A stretch of 64,000 nucleotides of DNA from the IMG/VR virus record IMGVR_UViG_3300037067_009225, positions 1 to 64,000 of that record. One strand, 5' to 3'. Below are positions 1 through 3,442 of the stretch, one piece after another; the stretch's first letter is position 1, and every line of letters begins with the position of its first letter. Origin of the DNA: a virus (Duplodnaviria > Caudoviricetes). Position numbers and translations under genes: made by a program. Below the pieces are notes generated by a model that saw only the letters and a program-made list of their open reading frames with translations, was not told where the DNA came from and ran no database searches.

Positions 1-101
1 ATAACATCAATACCTTCAAACGGTTGTGGCATCTCATTATATATGTTTTCATTCAAATACTCTCGTATTGTGGTTGCAATAAATTTTCTCAAATCTTTCA
101 T
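1..101 (-). CDS. 5' part of a putative virion-internal protein, truncated by window edge (MKDLRKFIATTIREYLNENIYNEMPQPF...)
   Basis: ATG at 101 on minus strand, open to window start; leader ends in LNE; TATTTATATATA just upstream. Confidence 0.6.
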   Translation of the reverse strand, partial: MKDLRKFIATTIREYLNENIYNEMPQPFEGIDV

Positions 102-326: not shown

Positions 327-1082
327 TTAATCATTTTCGTTAGAAAAATTAAAAAAAGACCCACCGCACTCTTTAATACGAGTTTCAGCTATTTCATTAT
401 ATTTTTCAGAATTATCAATTCCGATAAAATTTCTTTTCATCTCATAAGCTACTTTGGTTGTTGTTCCAGTTCCGTTGTATGGGTCTAAAACCAAATTTCC
501 TTCATTGGTAAATGCTTCAACACATCTTTTTACAAGTTCTTCTGGAAATGTAGCATTATGTCCGTAAATATTTTTGTTTGGAACAATTCGCCAAATACTT
601 AAATACTTTGCAGCTTCTTTATTCCAAGTAAATCCCTTTGCTTCTTTTCCAAGTATATAAATATCTTCATCAACCCTATAAAATCTAACAGGATTATACG
701 CTTGCATACCACATCTATCCCATGTAATTCTCTGTCTGTATTTTGCATTTGTCTTTAAAATCCATTCCAAAGGTGATTTTACTTCAAATTCAAATATTCT
801 ATCTTTGTGGTTGTAGCAAATTGTTCCAGTTGGTTTTAGAACTCTTACCATCTCATTTATTATTTCTATTTGCCTTGCTTCATAGGTTTCATCATCTTCT
901 TTGTCGGTGCAATTATCATAAGTTATATTGGTTCGTTCCCAAAAATCTTTCCTACTTGCTTGTGTTCTTCTGTTTCTCCAATTATTATAATTTGGTGAGG
1001 TAACAATCAAATCAATAGTGTTATCAGGGAATGTTTTAAGCAATTCCAAATTATCTCCTGTGTATATTTTATTTATTTCCAT
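327..1082 (-). CDS. DNA methyltransferase, N4-C/N6-A beta class
   Basis: DLIVTSPNY catalytic motif N-terminal; HNATFP; VLDPYNGTGTT SAM-binding motif C-terminal. Confidence 0.9.
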   Translation of the reverse strand: MEINKIYTGDNLELLKTFPDNTIDLIVTSPNYNNWRNRRTQASRKDFWERTNITYDNCTDKEDDETYEARQIEIINEMVRVLKPTGTICYNHKDRIFEFEVKSPLEWILKTNAKYRQRITWDRCGMQAYNPVRFYRVDEDIYILGKEAKGFTWNKEAAKYLSIWRIVPNKNIYGHNATFPEELVKRCVEAFTNEGNLVLDPYNGTGTTTKVAYEMKRNFIGIDNSEKYNEIAETRIKECGGSFFNFSNEND

Positions 1083-1140
1083 CCCTTCTCTTTTTTTAAT
1101 TTTTCTTTTAGTGCTTCGATTAAACGTTTGTGCTAAAAAT

Positions 1141-1250
1141 CCCTACTGGCTATAACAACGTGTATAAAACATAGCCAATTAAGGTTAGTGGTTTAATATT
1201 AAGTTTCGTGCGTGGCTACGTTTCATACACTCGACCGTTAGCAGTAATAC
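1141..1250. repeat. attC-like imperfect palindrome 2
   Basis: TGGCTATAAC (1147-1156) ... GTTAGCAGTA (1237-1246); inner stem 1160-1177/1213-1230, 16/18. Confidence 0.8.
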
Positions 1251-2047
1251 TACATTCCATCTCCGAATAGAGTTTTCTGCGTTAAATCTTTTTCTTTTCT
1301 TTTTTCTTCCACCCTTTTTAAAGCAATTTCATAATGGTCTTTTACTAATTCACTACCAATATAATCACATTCATTTTCAATACAACTTAATTGTGTAGTT
1401 CCTATTCCAGTAAAAGGTTCATAAATCAAACTTCCTTTTGGAAAGTAAATGTTTATCAGTTGATTTACTAAATCTTGTGAAAATGATGCTTTTAATTTAC
1501 ATTGGTATCCATCATTATTTCTCGCTTCAATGTAATTCACATAGTTTTTGTAAAACTTCTGCCCTGTTTTTTCATTTACCTTACTTACTTCCTTGTTGGT
1601 TTTGAATGTGTGTAAATATTCTTTCTTCACAAAAACATAAATCAATTCAGTAATCCTACTCAATTTAGTTGGTGATGTTTGAAATGGTATTGCATTTGGT
1701 TTCTTCCAGCAAATAATGTCTGCAATAGTTAAATCCGTTTCATTGTGGATTTTCGCAACTAATAATGTTGGTAGTATTGGATTTTCTTTTGCATAAGATA
1801 TGTTGTAACAAATCACACCAGTGTCTTTCATTACTCTTGAAAATTCTTTAAATTCATTAGTTCTTACTTCGAGATAATCATTTTCACTTAACCCATCTAA
1901 TTCAGAATATCCATTATTGTAATAACAATCACTTCTTTCTGTATTGATGTTGTATGGTGGTGATGTGATTATTCCATCAATAGATTTATCTTGAAGTCTT
2001 TTCAAGGTAATCTTACAATCTTCGTTATAAATTATATTTCGTTCCAT
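1250..2047 (-). CDS. DNA methyltransferase, N4-C/N6-A beta class
   Basis: IITSPPYN and IYEPFTGIGTT motifs. Confidence 0.9.
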   Translation of the reverse strand: MERNIIYNEDCKITLKRLQDKSIDGIITSPPYNINTERSDCYYNNGYSELDGLSENDYLEVRTNEFKEFSRVMKDTGVICYNISYAKENPILPTLLVAKIHNETDLTIADIICWKKPNAIPFQTSPTKLSRITELIYVFVKKEYLHTFKTNKEVSKVNEKTGQKFYKNYVNYIEARNNDGYQCKLKASFSQDLVNQLINIYFPKGSLIYEPFTGIGTTQLSCIENECDYIGSELVKDHYEIALKRVEEKRKEKDLTQKTLFGDGM

Positions 2048-2128
2048 TATTTATTTTTTTATTTCCTACCGCACAAAAAAGAAAAGAAAAAGGTTCAGTT
2101 TTTCATTGAGCATTTGTGGTTTAAATCC

Positions 2129-2974: not shown

Positions 2975-3442
2975 TTTTCTATTTTATTTTTAAGTTAATT
3001 ATTATTTTTCTATACCTATTTTAATAAAACCATTTATAATCTTTTGGTATTTCATTTTCAAAATATTCTGCATCTTCGTATATAGTTTTTAATTCATCTA
3101 CTCTTTTTTCTGCAACAGCCTTAGTTCCGCAGGTTCTTTCATACATATTACAACCCATGTTTTTATAAAAAATATAATAATGTGTCATTTTGTTTTTATT
3201 AAAATATTTTAAATATTAACGATAATATTTACATATAACACAAAGACCTTTATGTTTTCTACATGCTTCAACCCTTTTAATATTTGTTGATTTTAATTTA
3301 CATTCTTTAATATTATCCATAGATATATTTAATTGCTGTTTTGGTGTTTCAATTCCATTTTTTGATGTTTTCATATGTTTCATCTTATTTTATTATATTT
3401 ATTAAAAAATTAAATATACATCTCTAACCGTTATTAATAAAG

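Follow-up and report, generated by a model that had tools for sequence, protein, structure and literature searches.

The DNA methyltransferase genes at the left end of a giant phage genome (IMG/VR record IMGVR_UViG_3300037067_009225; Duplodnaviria, Caudoviricetes) are cargo of integron-like mobile cassettes whose ends can pair twice, at an outer core repeat and again at an inner inverted repeat of 18 bp. The stretch analysed here, referred to as the window, is the first 64 kb of this 113,906-bp viral record (estimated completeness 16%, G+C content ~20%). At its left end lie three minus-strand genes, separated by attC-like hairpins of 80-170 nt with ..AAC and GTT.. cores. Comparison across well over a hundred related phage contigs indicates that the inner stem is conserved and co-varying, and that it is a real part of the cassette. 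We tentatively favour a reading in which a two-part terminal inverted repeat, found in one integron-like cassette family of Flavobacteriia phages, has the inner repeats as its distal half; these would provide a second tier of pairing between cassette ends in folded single-stranded DNA, clamping the core half-sites together with the gene looped out. Small adaptive genes are shuffled by means of integron-like cassettes in many bacteria and, evidently, in many marine phages as well, the cargo here being anti-restriction methyltransferases. The inner stem may bear both on the reliable folding of single-stranded recombination sites and on how cassettes arise.

The inner stem in the window and in related cassettes

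Gene A (327-1082, minus strand, 251 amino acids) and gene B (1250-2047, minus strand, 265 amino acids) both encode N6_N4 DNA methyltransferases (PF01555, E 5.8e-38 and E 3e-28, respectively), and each is bracketed by its own inner repeat. The tail arm of cassette A (AGAAAAATTAAAAAAAGA, 342-359) is the exact reverse complement of the head arm (1089-1106), which lies 6 nt upstream of the ATG; the tail arm of cassette B (CTTTTTCTTTTCTTTTTT, 1288-1305) is likewise the exact reverse complement of its head arm (AAAAAAGAAAAGAAAAAG, 2075-2092), extending to 21 nt if one mismatch is allowed. An initial sequence-only reading of this DNA had described both repeats as perfect, which an exact reverse-complement check bears out, and had placed the left arms inside the 3' ends of the open reading frames (ORFs), where they indeed lie. 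Read on the minus strand, the A arm forms part of the C-terminus ..SFFNFS.., and the B arm encodes most of EEKRKEK (K249-K253 plus parts of the flanking codons). By hand counts, which are consistent with the spacers, the GTT core lies 45 nt (A) or 51 nt (B) from the left arm, and the right arm lies 50 nt from the AAC core in both.

A search of the whole 113,906-bp record for perfect inverted repeats 18 nt or longer, with arms 50-1500 nt apart, finds these two pairs and no others. Markov simulations (order 1, 3 and 5) give 0.23-0.35 such repeats per genome, with two or more in 3 of 120 simulations, so that two repeats bracketing adjacent genes inside 2.1 kb are far beyond chance. Comparative sequence data confirm their reality. 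Among the related loci collected (denoted here by L-numbers), the GTTA.../...TAAC repeats that bracket 150 ORFs match at 10 or more of 11 positions, and where the leader is at least 55 nt long, an inner repeat of 13 nt or more is present in 58 of 69 cassettes. When heads and tails of different cassettes are combined, only 3 of ~361 combinations (~1%) reach 13 nt, and the two longest of these (18 and 51 nt) are attributed to same-family pairs.

Around ten arm sequences occur among these cassettes, each matching its own partner: B, A, AAAAACTTTT(T)AAAAAT, AAAATTTTAAAAGAAAAAT, GAAAAACAAAAAGAAAAAA, AAAGAAAAAGAAAAAA, CAACTTTTAATAAATTTTT, ATAATTTTTAAAA and others. A relative of the B pair in L017 (CTTTTTGTTTTATTTTT / AAAAATAAAACAAAAAG) is changed on both sides with pairing kept, and gp38 of the cultured Polaribacter phage P12002L carries a shortened compensated pair (CTTTTTCTTCTTTTTT / AAAAAAGAAGAAAAAG) with cores 53 nt away on both sides (hand count). 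Over the cassettes studied, the arms lie ~45-53 nt from GTT and AAC. The head arm is A-rich or T-rich depending on the cassette, and the tail arm falls within the coding sequence of A, B, L031 and L179 but past the stop codon in L157, L182, L214 and L219, which speaks against the arms having a protein-coding function or serving as one site for a bound protein. Within the sequences compared, it is complementarity, and no particular sequence, that is the conserved property of the inner arms.

The sequence-only reading had taken each inner repeat to be private to its cassette. This is wrong for B, whose arm pair recurs in many cassettes, and the A pair was found in one other contig: an exact search for arm A returned more than 119 chance single matches in AT-rich contigs and one true second copy (L074), so the A arm is a rare type and its 18-mer alone is undiagnostic. 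The B arm pair is unchanged in ~100 viral contigs, and arms of this type are also present in two cultured Flavobacteriia phages, the Flavobacterium phage mymlan6-1 and P12002L. The B head motif (GAGCATTTGTGGT N6 CCGTACT) is present in mymlan6-1 and in 34 IMG/VR contigs, in most of which 38 nt separate the T-rich arm from the stop codon of the neighbouring ORF (239-302 amino acids), with the A-rich arm in the head. A scan with the tail alone found 99 contigs; 78 of them have enough flank, and a head arm with at most one mismatch lies 560-1080 nt away in 62 of these.

The B frame surrounds genes that are themselves far more divergent. The proteins encoded are methyltransferases with 24-30% identity between groups, together with a Dam-family enzyme (L027), and all end in ..EEKRKEKD..FGDGM; nucleotide identity among B-type cassettes is 0.80 in the heads and 0.85 in the tails, and 0.39 in the gene bodies. 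Of 21 cassettes compared, 20 have an identical tail arm, with variation in the neighbouring spacer, and no other part of the frame is as conserved as the arms in these alignments. B arms occur with at least five different outer core repeats, each self-complementary to its own partner, and the sequence directly outside GTTAGC and GCTAAC differs between loci. The two spacers of B-armed cassettes are length-matched within 1 nt, with GTT-to-arm and arm-to-AAC distances of 51/51 (31 cassettes), 52/52 (13) and 52/51 (8).

A frame search of bacterial genomes returned just seven contigs, all short and from metagenome bins whose labels are too diverse to be plausible; they are probably phage DNA. The bins of L156-L162, short contigs with the cassette head motif, are labelled Methanolobus, Saccharibacteria, Verrucomicrobiota, Bacteroidales and Chitinophagaceae, and these loci are most likely mis-binned phage contigs. 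In mymlan6-1 (L001), small coding sequences annotated in GenBank as 'hypothetical protein' at 2394-2528 and 3303-3419 overlie cassette heads, tails and attC-like hairpins, and are probably not genes.

Further shared elements adjoin the arms, and those named in the sequence-only reading are all present. The motifs CCCACCGCAC (360-369, immediately inside the tail arm of A), CCTACCGCAC (2065-2074, immediately inside the head arm of B) and CCACCATAC (141-149) abut arms, as does the P-like motif CTTCCACCC (1306-1314) immediately inside the tail arm of B. This G-rich P motif, roughly GYGCGKTGG on the sense strand, lies immediately inside both arms in the same orientation, and related motifs occupy these positions in cassettes elsewhere. 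The spacers are also related, with AGTGCTTCGATTAA at 317-330 (overlapping the stop codon of gene A) and 1110-1123, and GAGCATTTGTGGT at 182-194 and 2108-2120. The head spacer repeats the tail spacer in direct orientation, and the two change together from one frame subtype to another. The sequence-only reading had further predicted that the 3' end of the first, truncated gene would carry AAAAACTTTTAAAAAT, the complement of its head arm. The window itself is cut there, and the copy is found at 16 of 16 positions in the tail of the homologous L157 cassette, whose head is by eye nearly identical to the first head of the window; L033 carries 14 of 16 positions of the head-arm complement.

The C-termini of both enzymes were proposed to be element-derived, with similarity to non-cassette homologues stopping at the inner repeat, and both points hold. 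Against the closest non-cassette methyltransferases, the similarity of gene B ends at residues 246-247, where the frame tail begins (from 247), and that of gene A ends at 228-245, with the frame tail from 239. Since similarity stops at the tail and the 19-residue tail of B is common to unrelated enzymes, residues 239-251 of A and 247-265 of B derive from the cassette frame. In L016 and L020, a TGA within the conserved spacer motif makes the ORF four residues shorter with the DNA motif retained, which indicates that the last part of the common tail is conserved as DNA and not as protein. A protein-tag role for the EEKRKEKD..FGDGM tail was rejected as a general explanation, other arm types giving unrelated tails or none. 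For annotation it matters that this odd C-terminal peptide, common to unrelated phage methyltransferases, is frame-derived and lies outside the enzyme proper.

Cassette boundaries and mobility

Cassette A is ~99.6% identical in a 169.7-kb relative (G001, locus L074), and the identity ends at GTTATAGCC and GGCTATAACGG. Judged from such breaks, each cassette moves as one unit whose limits are the cores. On either side of cassette A, the hairpin interior differs between the window and L074, and the cassettes thus do not each carry a complete attC of their own; one interior type can also adjoin unrelated genes, as in L035 compared with the window. Since cassette A has different interiors on both sides in the two phages, crossovers seem to occur at both cores. 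Cores of the form RYYYAAC / GTTRRRY are present (GGTTATAAC...GTTATAG, GGCTATAAC...GTTAGCA and CTGCTAAC), and the hairpin cores are predicted to fold with helices of 15 and 18 bp that include G:T pairs.

The relative G001 holds at least 12 core-bounded cassettes over ~26 kb, at 86-112 kb (L247, L248). It also encodes, directly after a methyltransferase cassette and co-directional with it, a 298-residue Xer/IntI-like tyrosine recombinase (L245:1183-2079) that scores below the curated NCBIfam cut-offs of both family models (XerA/integron integrase, 206 bits against 220; TIGR02249 (IntI), 155 bits against 265). Tyrosine recombinases (PF00589), serine recombinases (PF00239) and Y1 transposases gave zero matches in the 114-kb record, itself 16% complete.

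Pairing in single-stranded DNA and competing explanations

Folding of the whole cassette with DNA parameters predicts an arm pair probability of 0.90-0.98 on either strand, in agreement with the earlier suggestion of a two-tier stem with the gene as its loop. The predicted minimum-energy fold of the sense strand combines a 14-bp outer helix formed by the cassette's own cores, an 18-bp inner helix and two attC core hairpins, with modelled arm duplex energies of -16.7 and -17.5 kcal/mol. Some ten arm sequences that exclude one another, all set at a constant distance from the cores, can be explained only by pairing, and pairing requires a single-stranded state. Integron attC sites recombine in the single-stranded state; single-stranded DNA is favoured because sites of this type recombine as folded single strands and because the geometry of the arms follows the cores. 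That the ends pair in single-stranded DNA, and that recombination benefits, is what we infer.

On its sense strand, a cassette is organised as a GTT core with a short extension, a spacer of ~38 nt, an arm, the G-rich P motif, an A-rich leader and the gene; past the gene come a P-like motif, then the arm complementary to the first, then a second spacer of about the same length, and an extension with the AAC core. We propose that, in single-stranded DNA, the ends of one cassette would form one duplex of ~14 bp at the core extension and another of 16-20 bp (~-17 kcal/mol) at the arms, looping out the gene and keeping both core half-sites of the cassette in register. Within the excised circle, arm annealing would lengthen and stabilise the attC stem, and in the array it would bring the two flanking attC hairpins side by side. 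The enzyme involved could be an Xer/IntI-like tyrosine recombinase, such as that beside the array in the related phage.

Several observations weigh against this reading. Perfect Watson-Crick arms cannot separate DNA from RNA, nor one strand from the other, and a wobble-based strand test on imperfect arms yielded few cases, pointing both ways. The attC core hairpins carry their G:T pairs on the gene-sense strand, which is the transcript strand, and which is not known to be the folding strand in classical integrons. Every B-type gene reads through the arm in one frame, and a pure DNA clamp leaves that unexplained. Pairing is also not obligatory, many cassettes in these arrays lacking an inner repeat: those with short leaders show either no distinct inner stem or a single long terminal repeat that runs on without a break, gp009 of mymlan6-1 and gp35 and gp36 of P12002L are without an inner repeat, L012 and L238 are mismatched-arm chimeras, and L005 joins a B head to a foreign tail. 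Moreover, sequence patterns from this window served to gather the loci, which over-represents B-type frames, and some of the contigs nearly duplicate one another.

The main rival to annealing in single-stranded DNA is pairing in RNA, whereby the 5' leader and the 3' end of each cistron in a polycistronic transcript would anneal at the outer and inner stems and close a loop, serving as an RNase III-like processing stem, as protection of message ends, or as a coupling between translation of the 3' end and access to the A-rich leader. We consider this unlikely on balance. In its favour, all cassette genes are co-oriented with zero terminator-like sites between them, the G:T (in RNA, G:U) pairs of the attC core hairpins fall on the gene-sense strand only, every B-type gene is translated through the tail arm, and the tail-arm variant of L027 has a G:U-compatible base on the sense strand. 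Furthermore, the head arm spans -24 to -6 before the ATG in A and L031, and in B it adjoins the A-rich leader, a possible alternative partner. However, the translation effect predicted from these positions is opposite in the two cassettes, the leader of A being masked by the tail arm and that of B freed, and other single mismatches (L019, L219 and L242) are wobble-compatible on the opposite strand. The tail arm lies past the stop codon in several cassettes, both arms of L025 border directly on the core repeats, a long way from the ATG, and arm positions keep to the GTT/AAC cores and not to the ORF.

Alternatively, the inner repeats could be scars of cassette formation or gene replacement. A pre-existing empty hairpin (core, spacer, arm, P, arm, spacer, core) would have received or exchanged genes in its loop at the P motifs, which would now be direct repeats flanking leader and gene, while the arms would be a split stem persisting mainly by copying of the frame. 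The same frame surrounds both the divergent methyltransferase groups and the Dam-family enzyme, homology to non-cassette enzymes stops at the P-like motif and arm, G-rich P-like motifs of one orientation adjoin the inner side of both arms in B, A (tail), L017, L157, L214 and L219, and the spacers are co-varying direct repeats of each other; all of this would fit such an origin. Nevertheless, we regard it as improbable, and the 'footprint of gene capture' suggested by the sequence-only reading is not established here: no empty arm-loop-arm hairpin (T-arm N(1-31) A-arm) was found in the 2.9 million viral contigs of IMG/VR. In many cassettes the junction of the head with gene-specific sequence lies at the ATG and not at P, no enzyme for such a step is visible, and we know of none that installs or swaps genes at P motifs. 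Above all, the arms are more conserved than the adjoining spacers and show compensated changes, which indicates selection on pairing now; arm invariance and compensation together point to a current function rather than a scar. A bolder extension, to which we would assign still lower credence, is that the frame (core, spacer, arm and P motif) may be a reusable 'socket' in which unrelated genes are installed or exchanged through a second recombination step at the P motifs. The frame would then supply the half-sites, the leader and a short C-terminal tail, and these cassettes would preserve the otherwise unknown making of integron-type cassettes from ordinary genes.

Because 18-bp inverted repeats bracket whole genes, and phase-variable methyltransferase systems are known, the repeats might also be crossover sites at which an invertase switches each methyltransferase gene on or off. 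This is very improbable and largely refuted, since the junction expected after inversion occurs in 0 viral contigs, compared with 99 for the normal junction. The orientation of the gene relative to head and tail is constant in every example, around ten unrelated arm sequences cannot serve one invertase, and, as stated above, neither PF00589 nor PF00239 recombinases were detected in the incomplete record. An insertion sequence or MITE was likewise rejected: the direct repeats lie 3-18 nt off the arms, not flush with them, they are homologous parts of the spacers, and the record has no Y1 transposase match.

Relation to known systems and layout of the array

Integrase-less attC clusters (CALINs) with methyltransferase cassettes have been published for virulent phages including Polaribacter phage P12002L, whose attC2, delivered single-stranded, recombined with attI1 by IntI1 (Qi et al. 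2023, PMC9892861). The cassettes described here share with CALINs the single-gene units, the imperfect hairpins between them, the ..AAC and GTT.. cores, a cassette start complementary to the core at the other end, and a cargo of phage DNA methyltransferases, and P12002L gp38 has the same inner stem. In classical integron cassettes, end complementarity is limited to the 7-bp core, whereas here it extends to ~14 bp and is followed, beyond a length-matched bubble of ~38 nt, by a stem of 16-20 bp; the hairpin interiors, unlike those of classical cassettes, do not travel with the gene, and the hairpin G:T pairs lie on the coding strand. The passages of PMC9892861 that were searched do not mention the inner repeats, the term 'inverted repeat' occurring twice, both times in an unrelated sense. 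The literature searched yielded no description of the second stem, nor of spacers matched in length or protein tails supplied by the frame, and the inner stem is apparently an undescribed part of a published kind of cassette. What this family adds to that kind is a second stem, conserved and co-varying, whose distance from the cores is fixed, and symmetric spacers with direct repeats, which are concrete, mutable parts. These parts also occur in cultured phages, the inner stem being present in mymlan6-1 and in P12002L, for which a recombination assay has already been published (PMC9892861).

Two further systems offer partial analogies. The long-range pairing of the 5' and 3' flanks of a unit in a polycistronic transcript would resemble the processing stems of 16S/23S rRNA and the RNase III sites of T7 early transcripts; unlike those stems, one arm here is often inside coding sequence. 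T4-type phages shuffle genes by means of conserved promoter and stem-loop cassettes (PeSLs). The highly conserved short flanks around very diverse small genes in hyperplastic regions are comparable, and such flanks could by analogy serve as homology for exchange, but the flanks described here carry cores of integron type, can pair with each other and have their breaks at exact positions within the cores.

Reading rightwards from the start of the window, the first cassette gene is represented by its 5' part (MKDLRKFIATTIREYLNE..., 1-101, minus strand), cut by the contig start, with an N-terminus by eye like those of cassette genes in L017 and L157. Its head (141-165) consists of the P motif and the head arm ATTTTTAAAAGTTTTT (150-165), the partner of which lies beyond the contig start, and is followed at 182-216 by the head spacer (GAGCATTTGTGGT..CCGTACT, the motif also found in the 34 viral contigs) and the outer core repeat ending in AAC (GGTTATAAC, 208-216). 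The attC-like hairpin interior between the first cassette and cassette A (217-296) is unlike the interiors flanking cassette A in L074. Cassette A has its GTT-side outer repeat at 297-310 (GTTATAGCCAATAG), the core at which identity with L074 stops, and its AAC-side outer repeat at 1143-1156 (CTACTGGCTATAAC). The attC-like interior between cassettes A and B (1157-1236) forms, in the predicted fold of the gene-sense strand, a core helix of 18 bp that includes G:T pairs. Cassette B has its GTT-side outer repeat at 1237-1250 (GTTAGCAGTAATAC), and at 2093-2142 lie its head spacer, with the conserved GAGCATTTGTGGT..CCGTACT motif, and its AAC-side outer repeat (2129-2142). The last attC-like hairpin (2143-2212) is related to 1157-1236; within 2143-2240 this resemblance runs to ~2212 and no GTT side follows, so the array ends there.

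Searches of the window for known RNAs (Rfam gathering thresholds and a tRNA scan) gave zero matches, and a promoter and terminator scan of 1-2800 was uninformative, with zero terminators. The end of the array (~2212-2240) directly precedes a block of small AT-rich ORFs. At 2403-2468 and 2687-2753, two direct repeats of ~30-35 nt lie upstream of consecutive small minus-strand ORFs and may represent duplicated regulatory regions.

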